Source: Candidatus Latescibacterota bacterium (lineage in GTDB: Bacteria; Latescibacterota; UBA2968; UBA8231). From it: a stretch of DNA of 64,000 bases. How positions within the stretch are numbered: the stretch's first letter is position 1; the number at the start of each line of letters is the position of its first letter. Shown here piece after piece: positions 1 to 9,326 of this stretch. The DNA is taken from the NCBI GenBank assembly GCA_965243025.1, contig CBDETY010000003.1:160001-224000 (forward strand). The letters are read 5' to 3'. The notes under the pieces are model-generated. The model saw only the letters and a list, made by a program, of their open reading frames with translations. It had not been told where the DNA came from and did no database searches. The position numbers and the translations under genes were made by a program.

Positions 1-807
1 AAACCTGCCGTCCTCTTGGTTCTCGACCTGGAGGAACCCCATGGACCTGTCTACGGCGGACTGCCAGGGCAGCAGAAGATCGAAGTCTCCGTCCCCGTCG
101 AGGTCGGAAATGCCGGAGGGAGACCTCCGAGGCCCGTGAGGCTCGCCGATCCCTTCCTGGTCGAGAGGGAGGAACCGGCTTTCGGCGAATAGAGCGCCCC
201 CTGTGCATGGGGGGGCCGTACCGGGGAGAGTTCCCCCGCGGTCCCGGAACCGGTCGACGAGCTCTATCTCTTCTATTTCAAGGAAGCGCGCGGCGTCTGA
301 CTCCGGAAGACCGGAGCAGCGGCCCACCGCTACCCGGAGGTCTGTCAGGTTCTCGTCCCAGACCAGTTCCTCCCTGGTGAGATCGAACTCGACATCCGTC
401 CAGGAGTCCGACAGAACCGTCTCGACTAGCAAAGCGAAGCGGCTTTTTCCCCGTGGTTTCGGATCCTGCCCCGGGTGCTGCTCGTTATGACTGTTCGTCC
501 AGGTCAGAGCGACCGTGCAGTCCGTTCCCGGCGACCCGGGAAGACGGAGGCGTACCTTGGCGCGGCTGAACCGGTCCGACTCTAGGTTCAACCGCGGCGA
601 CAGCAGAAGGGGAAGGCGGTGATCCTGCAGTTGCAGGGCAAACCGGAGCCTACCGTCTGCTGCCACCACATCAATAGGTGGTTGAAACCCAAGGGAGGGG
701 GTTCGTTGGCGCACTTGCCAGCCCTGCAAGCCCGAGCTGAAATCCCACTTCGTGCCGAGCGCAGGACCAGCCTGCAGTGCAACGATCAGAACAGCGGACC
801 GAAGCAT
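1..807 (-). CDS. Secreted FG-GAP repeat protein, paralog of 1489-3708 and 3849-6065; 3' end runs off the window
   Basis: Absent from the ORF track because its stop is outside the window. Manual translation from ATG 807: MLRSAVLIVALQAGPALGTKWDFSSGLQGWQVRQ...LLSPRLNLESDRFSRAKVRLRL...PSGISDLDGDGDFDLLLPW, which aligns with WEFEEDTQGWQIR, ISPQLNLDSGLFDRVEIRLRF and GIADLDGDGDLDVLVPW in the paralogs. AAAGGA lies upstream. Confidence 0.88.
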   Translation of the reverse strand, partial: MLRSAVLIVALQAGPALGTKWDFSSGLQGWQVRQRTPSLGFQPPIDVVAADGRLRFALQLQDHRLPLLLSPRLNLESDRFSRAKVRLRLPGSPGTDCTVALTWTNSHNEQHPGQDPKPRGKSRFALLVETVLSDSWTDVEFDLTREELVWDENLTDLRVAVGRCSGLPESDAARFLEIEEIELVDRFRDRGGTLPGTAPPCTGGALFAESRFLPLDQEGIGEPHGPRRSPSGISDLDGDGDFDLLLPWQSAVDRSMGFLQVENQEDGRF

Positions 808-829
808 GGGATTTCCTTTGCCCCTCCCC

Positions 830-874
830 AAAAAAAAGGCTGGAGGGGCTATATGCTACCATCCCTCCAGCCTT
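830..874 (-). terminator. Intrinsic terminator downstream of the Cys-rich peptide gene
   Basis: Minus strand: stem AGGCTGGAGGG...CCCTCCAGCCT followed by a run of T. Confidence 0.8.
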
Positions 875-917
875 TCCTTGGCCTAGGATTTCCTAGGTGA
901 TTTTTTTTGTCCTCTCT

Positions 918-1214
918 CTAGCCCGGGCAAGTGGACCCCCTGCACCCAGACTCATTACTAACAAAACCGCCGGATCTACAACACTTGTAAACCAAACGTT
1001 CTCCCCAAGGACAACAACCACCGTGCCAGTGCCAACTTCCGCAAGTGTAATCCACTGAAGGACAGCCTGTCGTGTGTGCCTCCGCAGGTTGGAAGGTGCC
1101 GAAGATCATACCTACGGCCAAAATTGCGACTAGGACGAATCCCAGGGAAATCCCTGTCTTCTCCGCGACAATGCCGCTGTCGGAGCCGAAGAACTCGATC
1201 AGTGATGTTTTCAT
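918..1214 (-). CDS. Small secreted cysteine-rich protein (98 aa; predicted 52-aa mature peptide with 8 Cys)
   Basis: RBS GGAGAGG before the ATG, hydrophobic h-region, AEA signal-peptidase-I-like site, Cys pattern C-x6-C-x8-CC-x9-CC-x11-C-x4-C, and its own terminator. Confidence 0.8.
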   Translation of the reverse strand: MKTSLIEFFGSDSGIVAEKTGISLGFVLVAILAVGMIFGTFQPAEAHTTGCPSVDYTCGSWHWHGGCCPWGERLVYKCCRSGGFVSNESGCRGSTCPG

Positions 1215-1488
1215 GGCATCCTCTCCATGCTGTGGGGAAACTTACCTCGTGGAAATGAATATGCGGCCGAGTTGTTAGGATGATCAACCCAAACAGTCAA
1301 AAAAAGTCTGATCCTTGGAAGAACTCAGGAACAAATGATGAAAATACATTCCAAATTTAAATGATATGATTAAATGAGGATATTCTGCCAATATACCAAA
1401 AATTTGATGAAAAAGTCACAGTTTTGGCAAAAAGTCTGGGAAAAGCTTTTTTTACTATTCGTGAGACTCAACTCACATACAGGAGGAC

Positions 1489-3708
1489 ATGACGATGCGG
1501 ATCCCTGCCATCGCAGCATTCCTCGCTTTGACCACCTCCTCCGGGGCGATCACCTGGGAGTTCGAGGAGGACACCCAGGGCTGGCAGATCCGGCTCGGGG
1601 GCTCCAGCGGCAGCTTCTTCCCACCTCTCGATGCAGAGGTCGAGGAGGGGGTGCTCAGGATCCCTGTTACGGAACAGTTCCTTGAGCAGGTCGATTTCGG
1701 GGGCGAAGGCTATCTCTATGACCGCTATCCCGTCCTGATATCGCCGCAGCTGAACCTCGATTCCGGGCTCTTCGACCGGGTCGAGATTCGCCTGCGTTTC
1801 GTGCATCCGGATCCGGTTGCGACGGGAGTGTTCCTTTCCTGGATAAATGACCTCGACGCCAGTGAGTTCGGAGTGTCCCATGTCGAGCTGCCGGGGATCC
1901 TGGTCCCCGCGGTATTCACCTCGGAATGGCAGGAGGTGGTGTTCCATTCTCTGGACGAGGAGGAGCAATGGGACTCGGATGCCACGTGGGGTGGGATTCT
2001 GGAGGAGATCCGGCTTTCCATCGACCTGTTCGAGAGCTCGGAAGAGCGCCGGGAACCGGTCGACCTGAGCGAGCTGCCGGAGTGGGTGGAGATCGACCGC
2101 ATCGTGCTGACCGGGGTAGAGGAGCGCTTGCAGGGGGAGCTTCCCCCTCCGGAAGTATCGGCAACCCATGCTCCCGGCCTGCTGTTCGGGCCGTCCCAAT
2201 TCGTACCGATGGGGCAGGAGGGGTTGGGGCGTGTTACAACCACCGGGTTTCCGGGAACGGGGATTGCGGACCTCGACGGGGATGGGGATCTCGATGTGCT
2301 GGTGCCTTGGAGTTTGTTCGACCCGGATCGGTGTGGGTTCATGGCGGCGATGAACGACGGAACGGGCGTATTGAGCGAGACGTGGCGACCGGTGCCTGAG
2401 GTCTCGGTCGGGGGGCGGCCGTTCTACTTGCTGGGCGGATTGGTCGATGTCAACGGGGACGGACGCGTGGACCTGTTCTACCGTCACGTCGGGTTGGGGG
2501 TGTGGCTGACCGATGCGGAGGCCCCGGGGAGGTACGTCCACCAGGCGATCCCGGGCATGGGTCCGGACGACCAGGACGGGGACGGGATACACGACGGAAA
2601 CCCGAGATACCTCGACGACTTCGACGGAGACGAAGACGTCGACCTGCTGGTCTCGGTATACCGGTGGACGACGACAGGTGACTCTTTTCTGCGGCTGCTG
2701 CTCAACGATGGCGAGGGCGGCTATTCACCTGGAGACTTCTGGGAGTTTCCGCAGTACTGGGCGAGACGAGTGCGCGACTTCGACGGAGATGGGAAGCTGG
2801 ATTTGAGGTGGTTTCCCATCGATTCTCAGTACAATCCCCGGGCCCGGATCGTGATGCTGCTGAGCTACAACATCCTGGAATCAGGCACGGAGCAGACCTT
2901 CGAGATGGTGGTCGAGGACGCAAGTGGCCTGGATTTACCTATGCCGTTCGCATACGGGGACTTCAGCGGGGACGGGGCCTTCGACATGATCCTTCCCGGG
3001 AGGACGGTAGAGGAGTGGGGCAGGGACCGCCACAGCATGCTGATCGCGGTGAACGACGGCACTGACCAGCATTTCGAGCTCATGCCCTGGCAGGGGGAGG
3101 AGGTCGTGTACGACCACATCTCTGATTTCCCTACCAGCATTGACCTGAACGGAGACGGCCTGCTGGACGTGGTGGTGGCAAACCGCCACCGGCGAACCGG
3201 CCGGAACGTCATCGTCTACCTCGGCCAGAAAGACGGCTTTCCGATCGAGGAGGGGCGGTACGGGCTGGCAGGGTTCGGGAACGCGGTCTGGGCCGGCGAC
3301 CTCGACGCGGACGCAGACCTGGACCTGGTGGTGATCGACGGCCAGTACCGGGGCGGGGGGCTGCACGTGCTCTACAACCGGCTCGACCCGCCCACCGCAG
3401 TCGAGGTGTCCTCAGCGGCGGTTCCGGACGCCCATTCACTGGGGCAAGCCTACCCCAACCCCTTCAACCCCGACCTGGCGATTCCGCTGACTCTTGCCCA
3501 GGCTGAGCGGCAGGTAACGGTTCGCGTCTACAACAGCCTCGGGCAGGAGGTTCGGCGCTTGACCCATGGGCCCCTGGACGCGGGGCACCACTCCCTGGCC
3601 TGGGACGGCCGGGACCGCGGCGGTCACCCAGTGGCCTCCGGGAGCTATCTGCTGAAGGTCAGCGCCGGCGACTGGGAGGCGGCGCGCAAGGTAGTGAAGG
3701 CCCGGTAG
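1489..3708 (+). CDS. Secreted FG-GAP/VCBS repeat (beta-propeller) protein with N-terminal beta-sandwich-like domain and C-terminal FlgD-Ig/T9SS-like domain
   Basis: AGGAGG RBS, signal peptide, about 7 DxDGDGxxD motifs, C-terminal QAYPNPFNP...VYNSLGQEVR...WDGRD...SGSYL. Confidence 0.9.
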   Translation: MTMRIPAIAAFLALTTSSGAITWEFEEDTQGWQIRLGGSSGSFFPPLDAEVEEGVLRIPVTEQFLEQVDFGGEGYLYDRYPVLISPQLNLDSGLFDRVEIRLRFVHPDPVATGVFLSWINDLDASEFGVSHVELPGILVPAVFTSEWQEVVFHSLDEEEQWDSDATWGGILEEIRLSIDLFESSEERREPVDLSELPEWVEIDRIVLTGVEERLQGELPPPEVSATHAPGLLFGPSQFVPMGQEGLGRVTTTGFPGTGIADLDGDGDLDVLVPWSLFDPDRCGFMAAMNDGTGVLSETWRPVPEVSVGGRPFYLLGGLVDVNGDGRVDLFYRHVGLGVWLTDAEAPGRYVHQAIPGMGPDDQDGDGIHDGNPRYLDDFDGDEDVDLLVSVYRWTTTGDSFLRLLLNDGEGGYSPGDFWEFPQYWARRVRDFDGDGKLDLRWFPIDSQYNPRARIVMLLSYNILESGTEQTFEMVVEDASGLDLPMPFAYGDFSGDGAFDMILPGRTVEEWGRDRHSMLIAVNDGTDQHFELMPWQGEEVVYDHISDFPTSIDLNGDGLLDVVVANRHRRTGRNVIVYLGQKDGFPIEEGRYGLAGFGNAVWAGDLDADADLDLVVIDGQYRGGGLHVLYNRLDPPTAVEVSSAAVPDAHSLGQAYPNPFNPDLAIPLTLAQAERQVTVRVYNSLGQEVRRLTHGPLDAGHHSLAWDGRDRGGHPVASGSYLLKVSAGDWEAARKVVKAR

Positions 3709-3842
3709 CGTCCCCGGGGCTCAGTTTGCACACGGGTTCGTGCTTACCCAAAAGGCCGGCCATCCCGGCGACCCAGATAGACGTGCCGGGTACAAACTGA
3801 ACCGGTTTTCACACCCCGGGCCATTCCCAGATACAGGAGGGT

Positions 3843-6065
3843 ATGGAAATGCGAACCGTAGCCATGGCGGCATTGCTTCTCGCTTTTACCACCTCCCCCG
3901 GGGCGATCACCTGGGAGTTCGAGGAGGACACCCAGGGCTGGCAGATCCGTCTCGGGGGCTCCTCCGGCAGCTTCTTCCCACCTCTCGATGCGGTGGTCGA
4001 GGAAGGGGTGCTCAGGATACCTGTTACGGAACAGTTCCTTGAGCAAGTCGATTACAGGGGCGAGGGCTATCTCTATGACCGCTATCCCGTCCTGATATCG
4101 CCGCAGCTGGACCTCGATTCCGGGCTCTTCGACCGGGTCGAGATTCGCCTGCGTTTCGTGCATCCGGATCCGGTGGCGACGGGAGTGTTCCTTTCCTGGA
4201 TAAATGACCTCGACGCCAGTGAGTTCGGAGTGTCCCATATCGAGCTGCCTGGGATCCTGGTCCCCACGGTATTCACCTCGGAATGGCAGGAGGTGGTGTT
4301 CCATTCTCTGGACGAGGAGGAGCAATGGGACTCGGATGCCACCTGGGGTGGGATTCTGGAGGAGATCCGGCTTTCCATCGACCTGTTCGAGAGCTCGGAA
4401 GAGCGCCGGGAGCCTGTCGACCTGAGCGAGCTGCCGGAGTGGGTGGAGATCGACCGCATCGTGCTGACCGGGGTGGAGGAGCGCCTGCAGGGGGAGCTTC
4501 CGCCTCCGGAGGTATCGGCAACCCATGCTCCCGGCCTGCTGTTCGGTCCGCCCCAATTCGTGCCGATGGGGCAGGAGGGGTTGGGGCGTGCTACAACCAC
4601 CGGGTTTCCGGGCACGGGGATTGCGGACCTCGACGGGGATGGGGATCTCGATGTGCTGGTACCTTGGGGGGCGTCCGGGCCGGATAGAGGCGGCTTCGTA
4701 GCGGCGATGAACGATGGAACGGGGGTGCTCAGCGAGGTCCACCGGCCGGTGCCTTCCAGGGCGGTCGACTTTCACCCCATTTACTACCTGGGCGGGTTGG
4801 CCGACGCCAACGGGGATGGTCTGGTAGACCTGTTCTACCGTCACGTAGGGTTGGGGGTGTGGCTGACGGATGCGGAGGCCCCGGGGAGGTACGTCCATCA
4901 GGCGATCCCGGGAATGGGTCCGGACGACCAGGACGGGGACGGGGTACACGACGGATTCCCCAAATACCTCGACGACTTCGACGGAGACGGAGACGTCGAC
5001 CTGCTGGTCGAGGTATACCGGTGGACGACGACGGATGACTCTTTTCTGCGGCTGCTGCTCAACGACGGGGAGGGCGGTTATTCACCTGGAGACTTCTGGG
5101 AGTTTCCGCAGTACTGGGCGGGGCCGGTGCGCGACTTCGACGGAGATGGGAACCTGGATATGAGGTGGTTTCCCATGGATGCTCTGTACAACCCCCGGGC
5201 AAGGATCGTGATGCTGCTGAGCTACAACATCCTGGAATCAGGCACGGAGCAGACCTTCGAGATGGTGGTCGAGGACGCAAGTGGCCTGGATTATCCTATG
5301 CCGTTCGCATACGGGGACTTCAGCGGGGACGGGGCCTTCGACATGATCCTGCCCGGTAGGCTGGTAAGGGAGGGGGGTAGGGACCGGCACAGCATGCTGA
5401 TCGCGGAGAACGATGGCTCCAACCAGCATTTCGAGCTCATGCCCTGGCAGGGGGAGGAGGTCGTGTACGACGACATCTCTGGTTACCCTACCAGCATTGA
5501 CCTGAACGGAGACGGGCTGCTGGACGTGGTGGTGGCCAACCGCCACCGGCGAACCGGCCGGAACGTCATCGTCTACCTCGGCCAGAAGGACGGCTTTCCG
5601 ATCGAGGAGGGGCGGTACGGACTGGCTGGGTTCGGGAACGCGGTCTGGCCGGGCGACCTCGACGGGGACGCAGACCTGGACCTGGTGGTGATCGACGGCC
5701 AGTACCGGGGCGGGGGGCTGCACGTGCTCTACAACCGGCTCGACCCGGCGACCGCGGTCGAGACGGCCTCGGCGGCGGTTCCGGACGCCCATGCGTTGGG
5801 GCAAGCCTACCCCAACCCCTTCAACCCCGACGTGGCGATTCCGCTGACTCTTGCCCAGGCTGAGCGGCAGGTAACGGTTCGCGTCTACAACAGCCTCGGG
5901 CAGGAGGTTCGGCGCTTGACCCATGGGCCCCTGGCCGCCGGGCACCACTCCCTTTCCTGGGACGGGCGGGACCGCGGCGGTCAGCCGGTCGCCTCGGGGA
6001 GCTACCTGCTGAAGGTCAGCGCCGGGGACTGGGAGGCGGCCCGCAAGGTAGTGAAGGCCCGGTAA
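3843..6065 (+). CDS. Tandem paralog of the FG-GAP repeat protein (start at ATG 3843 or 3849)
   Basis: Same architecture as 1489-3708 with long identical nucleotide tracts; same ATACAGGAGG RBS. Confidence 0.9.
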   Translation: MEMRTVAMAALLLAFTTSPGAITWEFEEDTQGWQIRLGGSSGSFFPPLDAVVEEGVLRIPVTEQFLEQVDYRGEGYLYDRYPVLISPQLDLDSGLFDRVEIRLRFVHPDPVATGVFLSWINDLDASEFGVSHIELPGILVPTVFTSEWQEVVFHSLDEEEQWDSDATWGGILEEIRLSIDLFESSEERREPVDLSELPEWVEIDRIVLTGVEERLQGELPPPEVSATHAPGLLFGPPQFVPMGQEGLGRATTTGFPGTGIADLDGDGDLDVLVPWGASGPDRGGFVAAMNDGTGVLSEVHRPVPSRAVDFHPIYYLGGLADANGDGLVDLFYRHVGLGVWLTDAEAPGRYVHQAIPGMGPDDQDGDGVHDGFPKYLDDFDGDGDVDLLVEVYRWTTTDDSFLRLLLNDGEGGYSPGDFWEFPQYWAGPVRDFDGDGNLDMRWFPMDALYNPRARIVMLLSYNILESGTEQTFEMVVEDASGLDYPMPFAYGDFSGDGAFDMILPGRLVREGGRDRHSMLIAENDGSNQHFELMPWQGEEVVYDDISGYPTSIDLNGDGLLDVVVANRHRRTGRNVIVYLGQKDGFPIEEGRYGLAGFGNAVWPGDLDGDADLDLVVIDGQYRGGGLHVLYNRLDPATAVETASAAVPDAHALGQAYPNPFNPDVAIPLTLAQAERQVTVRVYNSLGQEVRRLTHGPLAAGHHSLSWDGRDRGGQPVASGSYLLKVSAGDWEAARKVVKAR

Positions 6066-6107
6066 ACCCGGGTTCGTACCCGGTCCGGTCTCCCGGGCTG
6101 GGTGCCG

Positions 6108-6677
6108 TCACCCGCTCCCGGTGTCGAAACCGTCGGCGAGCGCCCGCAAAAGGGACTCGGGGTCGGCCTCGACGCGCAGCAGCGACCGGTGCCCGGGGCT
6201 GAGGAACTGCTGTTCGACCGCTTCGTCGAGGAAGGCGATCAGGTGGTCGAAATAGCCGCCCGTGTTGAGCAGCCCGACCGGTTTTGCGTGGAAACCGAGC
6301 TGCGACCAGGCCAGCGCCTCGAACAGCTCCTCCATGGTGCCGTACCCGCCCGGCAACGCCGCGAAGGCGTCCGAGCGGCGGGCCATGTGCGCCTTGCGCT
6401 CGTGCATGTCGCCGGCGACGATCAGTTCGTGCAGGTTTCCGTGGGCGGCCTCCTGCTCCTGCAGGGCGCGGGGGATCACACCGACGACGCGGCCCCCGGC
6501 TTCGAGAGCGGCCACGGCCACGGCCCCCATCAGCCCGACGTTCCCTCCGCCGTACACCAGTCCCATCCCCGAACGGGCGATGGTCCTGCCCAGGGCCTCG
6601 GCTTCGCGGCGGTACTCCTCTCCCCGGCCGGACTTCGAGCCGCAGTACACGCAGATGTTCCGGGTGGTTCCGTTCAT
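6108..6677 (-). CDS. LOG family nucleotide phosphoribohydrolase (TIGR00730-like)
   Basis: ICVYCGS, VYGGGNVGLMG, MHERK and PGGYGTMEE motifs. Confidence 0.9.
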   Translation of the reverse strand: MNGTTRNICVYCGSKSGRGEEYRREAEALGRTIARSGMGLVYGGGNVGLMGAVAVAALEAGGRVVGVIPRALQEQEAAHGNLHELIVAGDMHERKAHMARRSDAFAALPGGYGTMEELFEALAWSQLGFHAKPVGLLNTGGYFDHLIAFLDEAVEQQFLSPGHRSLLRVEADPESLLRALADGFDTGSG

Positions 6678-6949
6678 GTCGCTTTCCGGGGTCTTCCCGA
6701 TGAGACCAAAGAAAAACAAGCCGTGATCCCAATTCCGGCTCGTTGGCCGAGGCGGGGGTCAGGGGCGCACTTCCAGGTCCAGACTGTCAGCCGCAACCCG
6801 CCGTCAGCGCGTTGGAGCGGCCGGGATTCCGCAAACTCCGGACCCGGACCTCCCGGTGCCGGGTCGGCGGGGTGGAAGCGCGGTGTCCACGAACAGAGGT
6901 GCAGCGAGTCCCCCTCTTATCCGCAAACCCTCCGCAGGCGAGCAGACCA

Positions 6950-7489
6950 TTATCCCCCCATACCCGGTCGCGCGCCGGCAAGGGCGGCATCGGCGGGAAG
7001 GACCTGCCCGGCGTTTTCGGGGGTTGCCACAGGGGCTGAACTCAGCCGTGCGGACATCAACTCGCTCATCTCCCGGGCGGAAGGGGCGGCGAGAAGGAGG
7101 TGGACGAAGTCGCTGTCCCCGAAGGCCCCGGCGAGGAGGGAGAGGAGGCCGAGGTAGGGGCGCGGCGAGTCCATCGGCACGGCGATCACGCAGACCGCAC
7201 GCACCGCGCAGAGGTCGTCGCCGCTCGGGTAGTAGATCGGCTCGTCGCACACACCCAGGGCCATCCCCAGGCCGGTGACGCTGCGGGCGCGGGCATGAGG
7301 AAGAGCGATGGTGCCGCCTATCACGGTGCTGCCCAGGTTCTCCCGTTCGAGAACCAGCTGCAAGAAACTGAGGCTGTCGTTGAGCCGTCCGGCGCGGTAG
7401 AGGCGGTCGACGAGCTGTTTGATGGCGCCGATCTTGGAGTCGGAACGGAGACGGGGGACCATCATGGTCTGTTCGAGCAGACCGGACAT
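6950..7489 (-). CDS. PTS EIIA domain protein (PtsN/fructose-mannitol type); start could be 7561
   Basis: RENLGSTVIGGTIALPHAR with the phospho-acceptor His. Confidence 0.85.
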   Translation of the reverse strand: MSGLLEQTMMVPRLRSDSKIGAIKQLVDRLYRAGRLNDSLSFLQLVLERENLGSTVIGGTIALPHARARSVTGLGMALGVCDEPIYYPSGDDLCAVRAVCVIAVPMDSPRPYLGLLSLLAGAFGDSDFVHLLLAAPSAREMSELMSARLSSAPVATPENAGQVLPADAALAGARPGMGG

Positions 7490-7780
7490 GGCGGGAAAGG
7501 CCCCGGGAGGGTTGCCTGCTGCAAAATCTGCGTCGCTGTCCGCGGCGTCGCGGAAAATCATCGTAACTGGTTGTTTATTCTTGCTTAATGAAAATCGGAC
7601 AGCAGGGGTTGGCGGGCTGCATTAATTGCACGGTATCGAGAAGAGTCGGGGCAATGACCTTAACAATGTTGGCGGGCCCAACTCCCGGTGAGATTCCGTG
7701 GCCCGAGGCGGGGAATCGCGGTGGTTTTCGGAATTCCGGGCGGGCAGTTGCCGGCGCAACCCCCGGCCGCCAACGATCTA

Positions 7781-7796
7781 TGCAAACTCGGTGCCA
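7781..7796 (-). promoter_or_regulatory. Sigma-54 (-24/-12) promoter
   Basis: Minus strand TGGCACCGAGTTTGCA matches TGGCAC-N5-TTGCA exactly; intergenic and next to an NtrC-family gene. Confidence 0.75.
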
Positions 7797-7934
7797 GGGG
7801 TCGGAACAGTATCGTTTACTTGCTGTTTTATCTCAGGTTGCGCGAATTACAAAAAAACCCGGGAAGTCGTGTTCCCGCCTTGCCACCTCCGGAAGGTGGG
7901 CCTCGGTGCAAGAATTGCATACAGGCGAACCAGG

Positions 7935-9326
7935 TCAGGTCAGCTTGTACTGCTTGAGCTTGTACTGCAGGGAGCGCACGCTGATTCCCAGCATCGCGGC
8001 GGCCTCGCGGCGGTTCGAGGTCACCCGCTGCAGCGTCTGCCGGATCAACTCCGCTTCCACGTCCTCGATGGAGGAGCCGAGGGAGATGGTGAACTCCCCG
8101 ATTCCCGCACCCGGCTGGTCGATCGCCGCCTCCCCCAGGGCCTCGCGCAGGTGCCGGGGCTCGATGGTGTTCTCGGGGCAGGTGATCACCAGGCGCTGAA
8201 TGATGTTGCGCAGCTCGCGCACGTTACCCGGCCAGTGGTAGGAGACGAAGAGGTCGACGGCCTCCCTGCCGATCTTCTTGCGGGGCTGGTCGTAGGCCCG
8301 GCAGGCCTCGTCGAAGAAGGTCTCGACGAGCAGCGGGATGTCCTCGCGCCGCTCTCTCAGGGGGGGGACGTCGATGGGCACGACGTTGAGGCGGTAGAAG
8401 AGATCCTCGCGGAACTCCCCCTCGCTGACCGCGGTTTCGAGGTGGCGGTTGGTGGCGGCGATGACGCGCACGTCCGCCTTGTGGACCCTGGTGTCGCCGA
8501 GCGGCTGGAACTCGCGGTTCTCGAGGGCGCGCAGCAGCTCGACCTGGTTCTTCAGCGGGATCTCGCCCACTTCGTCGAGGAACAGGGTGCCCTTCTCGGC
8601 CAGGGCGAAGCGGCCGGCCCGGTCGACGTGGGCCCCGGTGAAGGCGCCGCGCTTGTGGCCGAACAGCTCGCTGCCGAACAGGTCCTGGGTGAAGCCGCCG
8701 CAGTTGACGGGAACGAAAGGCCCCTCCTTCCGGCGGCTGCGCTCGTGGATGGTGCGCGCGATCAGCTCCTTGCCGGCCCCGGTCTCCCCCCTGATCAGCA
8801 CCGGAACGTCGGACAGGGCCACCTGCTTGACGGTGCGCGTCGCCTGCTGCATGGAAGCGCTGCGGCGCACGATGCGCCGGAACGGGTCGTCGCTGTCGCC
8901 GCGGCCGAGGCGGTCGTGCAGCTCCCGGTTCTCGCGCACGAGCCGGACCCGGTCGAGGGCGCGGTTGACGATGAGGCGGACGTGGGTCAGGTCGACGGGC
9001 TTGGTGACGAAATCGAAGGCCCCCTTCTTCATCGCCTCGACCGCGGTATCGACGCTGCCGTGCGCGGTGAGGATGACGACGTTCGATTCGGGGTGGCGCT
9101 CGCGGATTTCCTCGAGCAGGTCCATTCCCGAGACACCCGGCATGCGCAGGTCGAGGAGGATGACGTCGAAGGCTCCCTTGCGCAGCCGGCGGCGCACCTC
9201 CCGGGCGTCGGAGGCGGTCTGGAGGTCGAGACCCGGCTCCTGCAGGGCGTCCTGCAGCCCTTCGCGGATGAAGACCTCGTCATCGGCGATGAGGAGGCGC
9301 GCCCGCGAGCTGCCGTGGTCTTTCAT
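7935..9326 (-). CDS. Sigma-54-dependent response regulator (NtrC/AtoC family: REC-AAA+-Fis HTH)
   Basis: Receiver domain (IADDE, LLDLRMPG), GETGAGKE, GAFTGA, FLDEVGE, WPGNVREL, C-terminal HTH. Confidence 0.95.
   Translation of the reverse strand: MKDHGSSRARLLIADDEVFIREGLQDALQEPGLDLQTASDAREVRRRLRKGAFDVILLDLRMPGVSGMDLLEEIRERHPESNVVILTAHGSVDTAVEAMKKGAFDFVTKPVDLTHVRLIVNRALDRVRLVRENRELHDRLGRGDSDDPFRRIVRRSASMQQATRTVKQVALSDVPVLIRGETGAGKELIARTIHERSRRKEGPFVPVNCGGFTQDLFGSELFGHKRGAFTGAHVDRAGRFALAEKGTLFLDEVGEIPLKNQVELLRALENREFQPLGDTRVHKADVRVIAATNRHLETAVSEGEFREDLFYRLNVVPIDVPPLRERREDIPLLVETFFDEACRAYDQPRKKIGREAVDLFVSYHWPGNVRELRNIIQRLVITCPENTIEPRHLREALGEAAIDQPGAGIGEFTISLGSSIEDVEAELIRQTLQRVTSNRREAAAMLGISVRSLQYKLKQYKLT

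Follow-up and report, generated by a model that had tools for sequence, protein, structure and literature searches.

The stretch of DNA analysed in this work, called the window throughout, comprises 64,000 nucleotides from a Candidatus Latescibacterota bacterium (assembly GCA_965243025.1, contig CBDETY010000003.1, positions 160,001 to 224,000 of the forward strand). Near its left end lies a small gene for a 98-residue, cysteine-rich protein (hereafter the mini-protein, or mini), set among three genes for paralogous secreted proteins with FG-GAP repeats (paralogs A, B and C). An initial annotation, made from the letters of the window, had reported the open reading frame (ORF) of the mini, its ribosome-binding site, its terminator and the three paralogs, one of them downstream on the same strand and two divergent, and all of these were found at their places, C being the same-strand gene and A and B the divergent ones. 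That annotation had also advised inspecting the sequence left of the window for more peptide/propeller units; what was found there are other parts of the system, lying beyond its view, namely a gene for an A24-type (prepilin) peptidase and two genes for redoxins, located 1-3.6 kb left of the window. The features are as follows, with positions in the window or, where preceded by C3, in the contig.

918-1214, minus strand: mini-protein ORF, 98 aa with 8 Cys (ORF and sequence reading)
1214-1152, minus strand: Flp-like leader of the mini, residues 1-21, with S13, G14 and G21 invariant
Residues 22-41 of the mini, minus strand: hydrophobic helix
1085-1077, minus strand: signal-peptidase-I-type site A44-E45-A46 of the mini (from alignments)
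1076-921, minus strand: hypervariable 8-Cys core of the mini, residues 47-98
1226-1220, minus strand: ribosome-binding site GGAGAGG, 5 nt ahead of the ATG of the mini
872-830, minus strand: intrinsic-terminator-like hairpin followed by T8, -20.9 kcal/mol, between the mini and paralog C
1-807 (ATG) or 831 (TTG), minus strand: 5′ part of paralog C, the gene that follows the mini; FG-GAP_3 at 2.3e-18
1215-1488, no strand: AT-rich divergent intergenic region between the mini gene and paralog A, 34-38% GC
1489-3708, plus strand: paralog A, 739 aa; FG-GAP_3 at 3.2e-20, FlgD_ig above cut-off
Parts of paralog A: signal peptide; beta-sandwich N-terminal domain (N-domain), residues ~21-215; propeller; FlgD_ig-type C-terminal sorting domain, residues 655-739
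3843-6065, plus strand: paralog B, 740 aa; FG-GAP_3 at 4.2e-19, FlgD_ig above cut-off
C3:156388-157494: Peptidase_A24 protein, 368 aa, 33.9 bits against a cut-off of 26.5
C3:158090-158602 and C3:157506-158093: AhpC-TSA/Redoxin proteins with CPYC and CSAC motifs and N-terminal anchors
C3:158605-159003: AraC-type helix-turn-helix (HTH) protein

The 98-residue ORF is a real gene and not a chance ORF, since its close homologs conserve the leader and the cysteines, and since a profile of its family finds 217 proteins. Three such homologs, at 57-69% identity, keep residues 1-46 and the cysteines whilst the Cys-rich part varies. The gene is single-copy in its genome, where the N-domain shared by the FG-GAP proteins is likewise confined to paralogs A, B and C; two genomes of the same genus have no match to that domain, so that the gene cluster is accessory. 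The mini had been described as sitting in an AT-rich patch; the patch exists, but its truly AT-rich part is the intergenic region at ~1201-1500 (34-38% GC), the mini gene itself having 50-56% GC and the flanks 60-73%. The region 1215-1488 presumably carries the promoters of the mini gene and of paralog A, and the hairpin at 872-830 may be an attenuator setting the ratio of mini to partner, a hairpin with a run of at least four T being found in 13 of 34 mini-to-partner gaps. A 400-nt contig from one RNA-library run, derived from a relative ~90-93% alike, spans positions 865-1261 and with them the whole mini ORF; its indels against the window are confined to the core, add up to +3 and keep the frame, and its substitutions are concentrated in the core. 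Since neither transcription nor transcript ends can be proved from contigs, this hints at expression weakly, and the gaps in contig cover at window bins 613-816 and 1429-2448 prove nothing.

Judging by its sequence, the product is probably exported and disulfide-rich, and it belongs to a family that had not been named before. The 217 proteins matched by the 29-member profile in large protein sets all lack a Pfam domain, and the only source name that any of them carries is ‘hypothetical protein’. In a search of 1.84 billion clusters, 140 cluster representatives match the family at E<=0.001, with a median of 8 Cys. Among the 76 genomes of the order, a first alignment detected the family in 22 and a broader alignment in 31, at up to 20 copies per genome, and phylum-wide it is present in 33 of 153 genomes, across three families of one class. 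None of 21 family members matched a Pfam or NCBIfam model, the best score in the ESM Atlas (0.79, to unnamed clusters) is under the level that counts, and a search of genome and metagenome contigs for loci like that of the window's own subfamily confirmed none.

The anatomy of the family was read from its alignments. A leader with the consensus L-x-E-F-F-x-S-x-S-G-x6-G, in which S13, G14 and G21 are invariant across the family alignments, is followed by a hydrophobic helix of ~20 residues, then by the AxA site, and finally by a core of ~45-55 residues; all 29 alignment rows have Ala aligned to A46 (position -1) and a small residue at -3. A reading of this N-terminus as an ordinary signal peptide is not supported; it is a conserved leader resembling that of Flp pilins. 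A second mini subfamily, with a longer N-terminal extension, occupies three other places in the same genome. In or beside loci of this second subfamily there are two 450-aa ORFs (L045 11764-13116 and L046 6192-7544, on C3 near 2.82 Mb and 3.44 Mb), which share their first 60 and last 25 residues and one of which adjoins a truncated mini (L046 7617-7823); both resemble a mobile element by which such loci are interrupted.

A constant companion of the minis is the A24 peptidase. All four A24 genes of the window's genome score above cut-off and each lies 1.1-4.5 kb from a mini. Across the 76 genomes, 28 have both mini and A24, three the mini only, one the A24 only and 44 neither, a table to be taken as a pattern and not as a statistic, since related genomes are non-independent and the table therefore overstates its statistics; 38 of the 49 A24 matches in these genomes fall within 5 kb of a mini match. 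In the sole A24-only genome, the A24 gene looks like an ordinary pilus- or secretion-type one, as it shares its contig with a match to T2SSE. D30 (in a YTD motif) and D90 (in GFWxxGDAKL) are invariant in ten A24 homologs and, going by these motifs, are probably the catalytic Asp pair of the enzyme. A sequence search with the A24 profile against the PDB gave no match.

The redoxins are constant companions as well. In 20 further loci, each of the 21 A24 genes is accompanied, at less than 2 kb and on its own strand, by one redoxin gene or two, in layouts such as {mini-big}n-A24-red-red, A24-(205 aa)-red-red-mini-big and red-red-A24-mini-CBM9-like, where ‘big’ denotes a large partner gene and CBM a carbohydrate-binding module. 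The two redoxins next to the window match AhpC-TSA above cut-off (6.5e-11 and 3.6e-8), and the CSAC/CPYC motifs and hydrophobic N-termini recur in nine redoxin homologs. By these features the two proteins are classed as membrane-anchored, TlpA-like thiol-disulfide oxidoreductases, which may work in the oxidase or in the reductase direction. A conserved protein of ~205-218 aa stands between A24 and the two redoxins in one of the layouts (L039 1446-2063, L042 1437-2093, and A24-redoxin gaps of ~640 bp in L055, L065, L067 and L070); it has a weak match to FMN_bind, at E 0.002-0.003 and below cut-off.

A prepilin-type peptidase would ordinarily point to a filament. According to a review of type IV filaments (PMC10191384), every such system has a pilin, a prepilin peptidase, an extension ATPase and a platform protein, and the peptidase carries two universally conserved Asp. 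Flp pilins, as described in PMC4322843, are proteins of 50-80 aa with a motif N-terminal of a hydrophobic stretch of ~20 residues; TadV cuts them after the Gly of G/XXXXEY, and their genes almost always reside in tad loci. In the window's genome (96% complete, 3 contigs), neither T2SSE nor T2SSF found a match, the control searches being positive in 13 of 14 known genomes, and T2SSE is absent from 24 of the 28 genomes with both mini and A24 and matched in the other four. Flp_Fap (PF04964) does not match the window's mini even at E 10, nor any of 21 family members, and its best match genome-wide (E 0.78) is below cut-off. The residues after G14 are IVAEKT in the window's mini and LAPARQ or EVSSKQ in its relatives, with no Glu5-Tyr6. 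Classification of the mini as a Flp/Fap pilin was thus rejected, for want of a profile match, of Glu5-Tyr6 and of a tadA/tadB/tadC-type locus, and so was membership of a type IV filament system, the peptidase being present four times in a genome from which ATPase and platform protein are absent. Judged from their sequences, the minis resemble Flp precursors in the leader yet appear to belong neither to Flp pilins nor to type IV filaments.

Each mini is normally followed by one to three genes for secreted proteins that start with a CBM-like beta-sandwich. In the window, paralog C is the cassette partner of the mini, being the gene directly downstream of it, and A and B, neither of which has its own mini, are additional partners. 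Paralog B, a tandem duplicate of A, shares its architecture, and the first 237 residues of the two are 94% identical; the propeller of A, by sequence reading, has seven DxDGDG-type FG-GAP repeats. For paralog C, the ATG at 807 is preferred as the start because the TTG at 831 overlaps the T-run of the hairpin. The gene continues for 993 bases left of the window, giving a full length of ~599 aa from the ATG (up to 607), with a signal peptide, a CBM-like N-domain 35% identical to that of A, and FG-GAP repeats. The N-terminal motif said to be common to the three paralogs is borne out, with W-x-F, G-W, S...S..F and R.R invariant in an alignment of 43 N-domains. At the FlgD/T9SS-like end ascribed to A and B (T9SS being the type IX secretion system), FlgD_ig scores 58-60 bits, above cut-off, and Por_Secre_tail 22 bits, below its cut-off of 27. 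Next to the window, the end of the AraC-type gene lies 5 bases from the stop of paralog C; its product (L008 13605-14003) has 132 aa with HTH_18 and no sensor domain, and starts with a duplicated MPKFQ(R/K)(L)T, features suggesting a rearrangement in which paralog C may have lost its tail.

Pfam has no match for the N-domain of these large proteins. A structure model of that of paralog A (predicted local distance difference test, pLDDT, 72; predicted template-modelling score, pTM, 0.71) found, with Foldseek, CBM4/11/22/86, GH16 and a gingipain adhesin, at E ~5e-5 to 5e-4 and target-normalised template-modelling (TM) scores of 0.4-0.58. Adjacency was counted in loci fetched from related genomes because they hold minis, and the counts apply under that selection. 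Of 47 leader-bearing ORFs, 34 are followed on their own strand, after no more than 400 bp, by the start of a gene with this N-domain, for a protein built like the paralogs of the window (CBM-like N-domain, FG-GAP propeller, T9SS tail); of 50 large N-domain genes, 33 have a mini directly ahead. The association of homologous FG-GAP genes with small Cys-rich ORFs, which the initial annotation had put forward as a check of its proposal, thus came out in its favour, subject to that choice of loci, and the genetic link between the mini and the large N-domain gene is real and conserved. One related genome has 28 N-domain matches in runs of four to five genes per contig (C96, C98, C112 and others), an expansion far larger than that in the window's genome.

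The idea that the propeller is the defining partner is not supported, as other minis pair with CBM9-like proteins or with one combining leucine-rich repeats and PD40 (LRR + PD40), and as some cores are fused to a T9SS tail. Minis of the second subfamily are followed by a secreted protein of 300-340 aa, whose model (pLDDT 73, pTM 0.77) resembles CBM9 modules at E 1e-7 with target-normalised TM scores of 0.67-0.73, and the LRR + PD40 protein is the mini partner in one genome. These CBM9-like partners all end in (S/T)W(A/G)RIKAxLSE (e.g., L036 9317-10288 and L045 9957-10895, both on the minus strand), an end which, on a low-confidence model, may be a sorting or anchoring signal unlike the FlgD_ig tail.

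In ten proteins the same leader and a T9SS tail are joined in one chain. The seven listed here, of 200-345 aa, hold one to three Cys-rich modules, in most of them each ending in a CSSTPCSE-like sequence, and they look like ‘poly-mini’ cargo:

L056 8896-9891, minus strand: leader and T9SS-tail protein
L056 9809-10840, minus strand: leader and T9SS-tail protein
L059 6877-7716, plus strand: leader and T9SS-tail protein
L060 9930-10751, minus strand: leader and T9SS-tail protein
L067 820-1812, plus strand: leader and T9SS-tail protein
L034 9192-10223, minus strand: leader and T9SS-tail protein
L029 2378-2980, minus strand: leader and T9SS-tail protein

Cargo of the T9SS has to be soluble in the periplasm. 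The tail-fused proteins therefore indicate that the leader is a signal for export and that the core comes free of the membrane. In the window's genome, SprA_N (the T9SS translocon part searched for) has a match at 9.3e-31, and there are at least 149 FlgD_ig tails.

The core of the minis diversifies much faster than the rest of the gene. In 34 pairs of mini and partner, the leader has a mean pairwise identity of 66% and the core one of 26%, as compared with 51% for the N-domain, 49% for the propeller and 66% for the tail of the large proteins from the same pairs. In the 101 gene pairs with a leader pS below 0.4 (pN and pS being the proportions of nonsynonymous and synonymous differences), median pN and pS are 0.063 and 0.286 in the leader and 0.491 and 0.617 in the core, and the median dN/dS is 0.79 in the core (above 1 in 33% of pairs) against 0.20 in the leader. 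In the core of the youngest duplicates pN exceeds pS, at 0.115/0.030, 0.094/0.037 and 0.180/0.067. All these figures are indicative only, being derived by a simple Nei-Gojobori method from sequences that are difficult to align. Synonymous divergence, too, is far higher in the core than in the leader, so that leaders seem to be homogenised or cores exchanged, beyond selection on the protein sequence alone. The divergence of the core correlates with that of the large gene (Spearman 0.69-0.72), and comparison with each domain of the large protein in turn singled out no contact domain.

In the large genus that bears mini arrays, a near-consensus sigma-54 -24/-12 element lies ~150-160 nt upstream of 20 of the 47 minis, and the arrays are bordered by genes for enhancer-binding proteins of 800-1060 aa that have Reg_prop/Y_Y_Y sensor domains. 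The element reads TGGCACG-N4-TTGCA and leaves long 5′ leaders (L029-L043; e.g., L033 1165-1563 and L040 5509-5889). No such element occurs in the 300 bases upstream of the window's mini, which stands behind the AT-rich region and near the AraC-type gene.

Taken together, these results suggest that the A24 peptidase and the redoxins mature variable, disulfide-rich minis, which then pair with partners exported by the T9SS, a chain of events to which, as a whole, we would give a probability of about one half. What it builds on is observed, namely the gene set and its conservation, the catalytic motifs, the anchored CxxC redoxins, the absence of the pilus core, the tail fusions and the diversification of the core. 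The leader and helix would insert the mini precursor into the inner membrane, where the A24 enzyme, acting on the cytoplasmic side, would cut at one of the invariant glycines of the leader, G14 or G21. The redoxin pair would make and rearrange the four disulfides in the periplasmic core, which would be released from the membrane, possibly at the AxA site, and would join the co-expressed binding protein that the T9SS carries to the cell surface. The outcome could be a variable surface or secreted pair of ligand and carrier, used in recognition or antagonism. Of the two halves of this chain, maturation (A24 and redoxins acting on the mini) is more likely than pairing. A bolder extension, tentative and on balance doubtful, is that of a branch of prepilin peptidases independent of pili, in which bacteria that lost type IV filament machinery, or never possessed it, keep A24 solely for hypervariable, disulfide-knotted minis that dock on the co-encoded CBM/propeller protein and leave with it through the T9SS, making up a polymorphic lock-and-key repertoire of ligands and receptors for self/non-self distinction or antagonism.

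Several observations weigh against the maturation-and-pairing chain. Physical binding of mini to propeller is not supported; prediction of a complex between residues 19-599 of paralog C and the mature mini (residues 47-98), both with alignments, gave interface (ipSAE) scores of 0.01 and 0.00, which are evidence neither way. The correlation of 0.69-0.72 between core and large-gene divergence is expected from tandem duplication alone. Partners vary in class (FG-GAP, CBM9-like, LRR-PD40), and between the two main classes no homology is detectable: the N-domain and the CBM9-like partner showed no relation when their profiles were compared. Seventeen of the 50 large genes have no mini directly ahead, being second or third genes of a unit or standing by themselves like A and B. 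Paralog C, over its whole gene, has neither FlgD_ig nor a C-terminal tail, which weakens co-export for this copy. In the precursor itself, G14, G21 and AxA are all conserved as candidate cuts, and two cuts in so small a precursor would be unusual. Finally, the leader has no Flp-type Glu5-Tyr6 and matches no pilin profile.

The last point also bears on a rival idea, that the minis are true Flp-type pilins in a filament, with the Cys-rich domain exposed and the propellers serving as tip adhesins or accessory proteins. Flp leaders carry a Gly at +7, and the spacing of the two glycines in the Flp-like leader of the mini equals that of G/XXXXEY-G. As in the Flp and TadV of Tad (type IVc) pili, as PMC4322843 describes them, a small protein with an N-terminal motif ending in Gly ahead of a hydrophobic stretch of ~20 residues goes with a dedicated A24 enzyme that has two conserved Asp and no methyltransferase domain; furthermore, the N-terminal helix is conserved, the C-terminus variable, and there are several copies per genome. 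Nevertheless, a pilin role is very improbable. The window's genome has no tad locus and neither the extension ATPase nor the platform protein (universal, according to PMC10191384), most genomes with mini and A24 (24 of 28) also lacking the ATPase, and the mini has K/R/E and Q/T at +5/+6 instead of Glu-Tyr and fails to match Flp_Fap. Its helix is followed by a conserved AxA site and a hypervariable 8-Cys domain, its constant neighbours are redoxins and T9SS cargo, and the same leader stands on T9SS-tailed proteins, necessarily soluble in the periplasm. At the other extreme, an absence of any functional link, with the mini an ordinary small protein secreted by the Sec route and placed by chance among FG-GAP genes, is barely credible: the AxA site and hydrophobic stretch could indeed serve as a plain signal peptide, and a terminator does separate the mini from paralog C, but the leader motif is conserved over 140 clusters, adjacency is kept in 34 of 47 cases, mini and A24 co-occur (28/3/1/44), and 38 of 49 A24 matches are within 5 kb of a mini.

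Between these lie two explanations that keep the gene set together and assign it another purpose. The minis could be defensin- or bacteriocin-like toxins and the adjoining binding proteins their immunity proteins or carriers, in which case the mini-less A and B would be orphan immunity genes. The hypervariable core, with pN exceeding pS in recent duplicates, would fit this, as would the tandem arrays with mini-less large genes and a layout of conserved leader and variable core known from ribosomal peptide toxins; single members even have weak, non-significant matches to the defensin-like profiles AtDEF-like (0.0082) and actinodefensin (0.68). The toxin role is nonetheless unlikely. These defensin matches fall far short of any threshold, an immunity protein in the form of a 700-aa T9SS-exported propeller would be unusual, and the Pfam scans made of selected neighbouring genes named neither a peptide exporter nor an ABC/C39 transporter. 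Quite improbable is a membrane-tethered signalling precursor, from which A24, as an aspartyl protease of the intramembrane type, would free the conserved cytoplasmic N-terminal peptide as the product whilst the periplasmic domain senses a partner or ligand. The cytoplasmic leader is the most conserved part of the family, and the loci adjoin activators (the sigma-54 enhancer-binding proteins with Reg_prop/Y_Y_Y, and here the AraC-type HTH protein), with near-consensus sigma-54 promoters ahead of many minis (20 of 47). Yet nothing ties a freed peptide to any regulator, the redoxins and the tail-fused forms indicate that the periplasmic core is the product, and leaders that serve recognition only are also conserved in pilins and in precursors of ribosomal peptides.

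The maturation-and-pairing chain has parallels in other systems, none of which it matches. Loci of RiPPs (ribosomally synthesised and post-translationally modified peptides) and class II bacteriocins combine a conserved leader and hypervariable core, several precursors, a leader protease and adjacent tailoring enzymes. The likeness to the minis would be one of working logic only, for the mini leader contains a transmembrane helix, the protease is a membrane aspartyl enzyme of the A24 type, tailoring would consist of disulfide formation by TlpA-like redoxins, and Pfam scans of selected neighbouring genes named neither RiPP enzymes, including those with a RiPP recognition element (RRE-type), nor a dedicated transporter. 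Paralogs A and B and the tail-fused poly-mini proteins resemble T9SS cargo in ending with a FlgD_ig/Por_Secre_tail-like domain; to our knowledge, the T9SS substrates described so far include no tail-less small protein encoded ahead of the cargo and no cargo with a leader that is not of the Sec type. In Sulfolobus, the bindosome involves sugar-binding proteins with class III signal peptides, which are processed by PibD and need BasEF, an assembly ATPase and a membrane protein. By analogy, a prepilin-peptidase-type enzyme may here, too, process surface proteins linked to carbohydrates and not to pili, although the bindosome is archaeal and depends on BasEF, whereas the mini system has neither ATPase nor membrane protein, and its processed protein is a Cys-rich mini and not a sugar-binding protein.

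A further analogy is with SCR/SP11 and SRK of Brassica and with conotoxin precursors, which likewise have a conserved signal or pro region and a hypervariable 8-Cys mature part, a gene linked to that of the binding partner, and folding aided by thiol-disulfide oxidoreductases. Those systems are eukaryotic and without homology to the minis, and receptor binding has been shown in them, whereas binding by the minis is hypothetical. The initial annotation knew of no described system with this layout, and our full-text literature search, with subscription journals outside its coverage, also found nothing describing this gene set. Each part comes from a known family, whilst the combination of an A24 protease lacking a filament machine, dedicated redoxins, a new family of hypervariable minis and T9SS-tailed binding partners matches no system known to us; its working logic, it should be said, borrows from prepilin processing and from the maturation of ribosomal peptides.

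Two further observations concern genes around the minis. Right of paralog B, the window has ORFs of 203, 203 and 463 aa on the minus strand (6108-9326), the last of which resembles, by eye, a response regulator that carries a sigma-54 activator domain. In the large genus, a protein of 445-460 aa recurs next to the mini arrays, with a DUF4159 domain in six of seven scanned; genes of this size class are:

L032 1593-2930: DUF4159 size class
L033 11454-12791: DUF4159 size class
L037 17243-18583: DUF4159 size class
L038 5590-6933: DUF4159 size class
L042 8861-10243: DUF4159 size class
L043 10665-12035: DUF4159 size class

In conclusion, prepilin peptidases, known as parts of type IV filaments, occur here without the ATPase and platform protein and are tied to Cys-rich minis and disulfide enzymes. 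If the chain of maturation and pairing is true, it would represent a new route by which Gram-negative bacteria make and export small knotted proteins, and would link an inner-membrane leader protease to the cargo of type IX secretion. It would also supply stable, disulfide-rich scaffolds in the form of a natural library, in which each is paired with a candidate binding protein, and would assign a function to the gene arrays, of up to 20 copies per genome, of this uncultured phylum.

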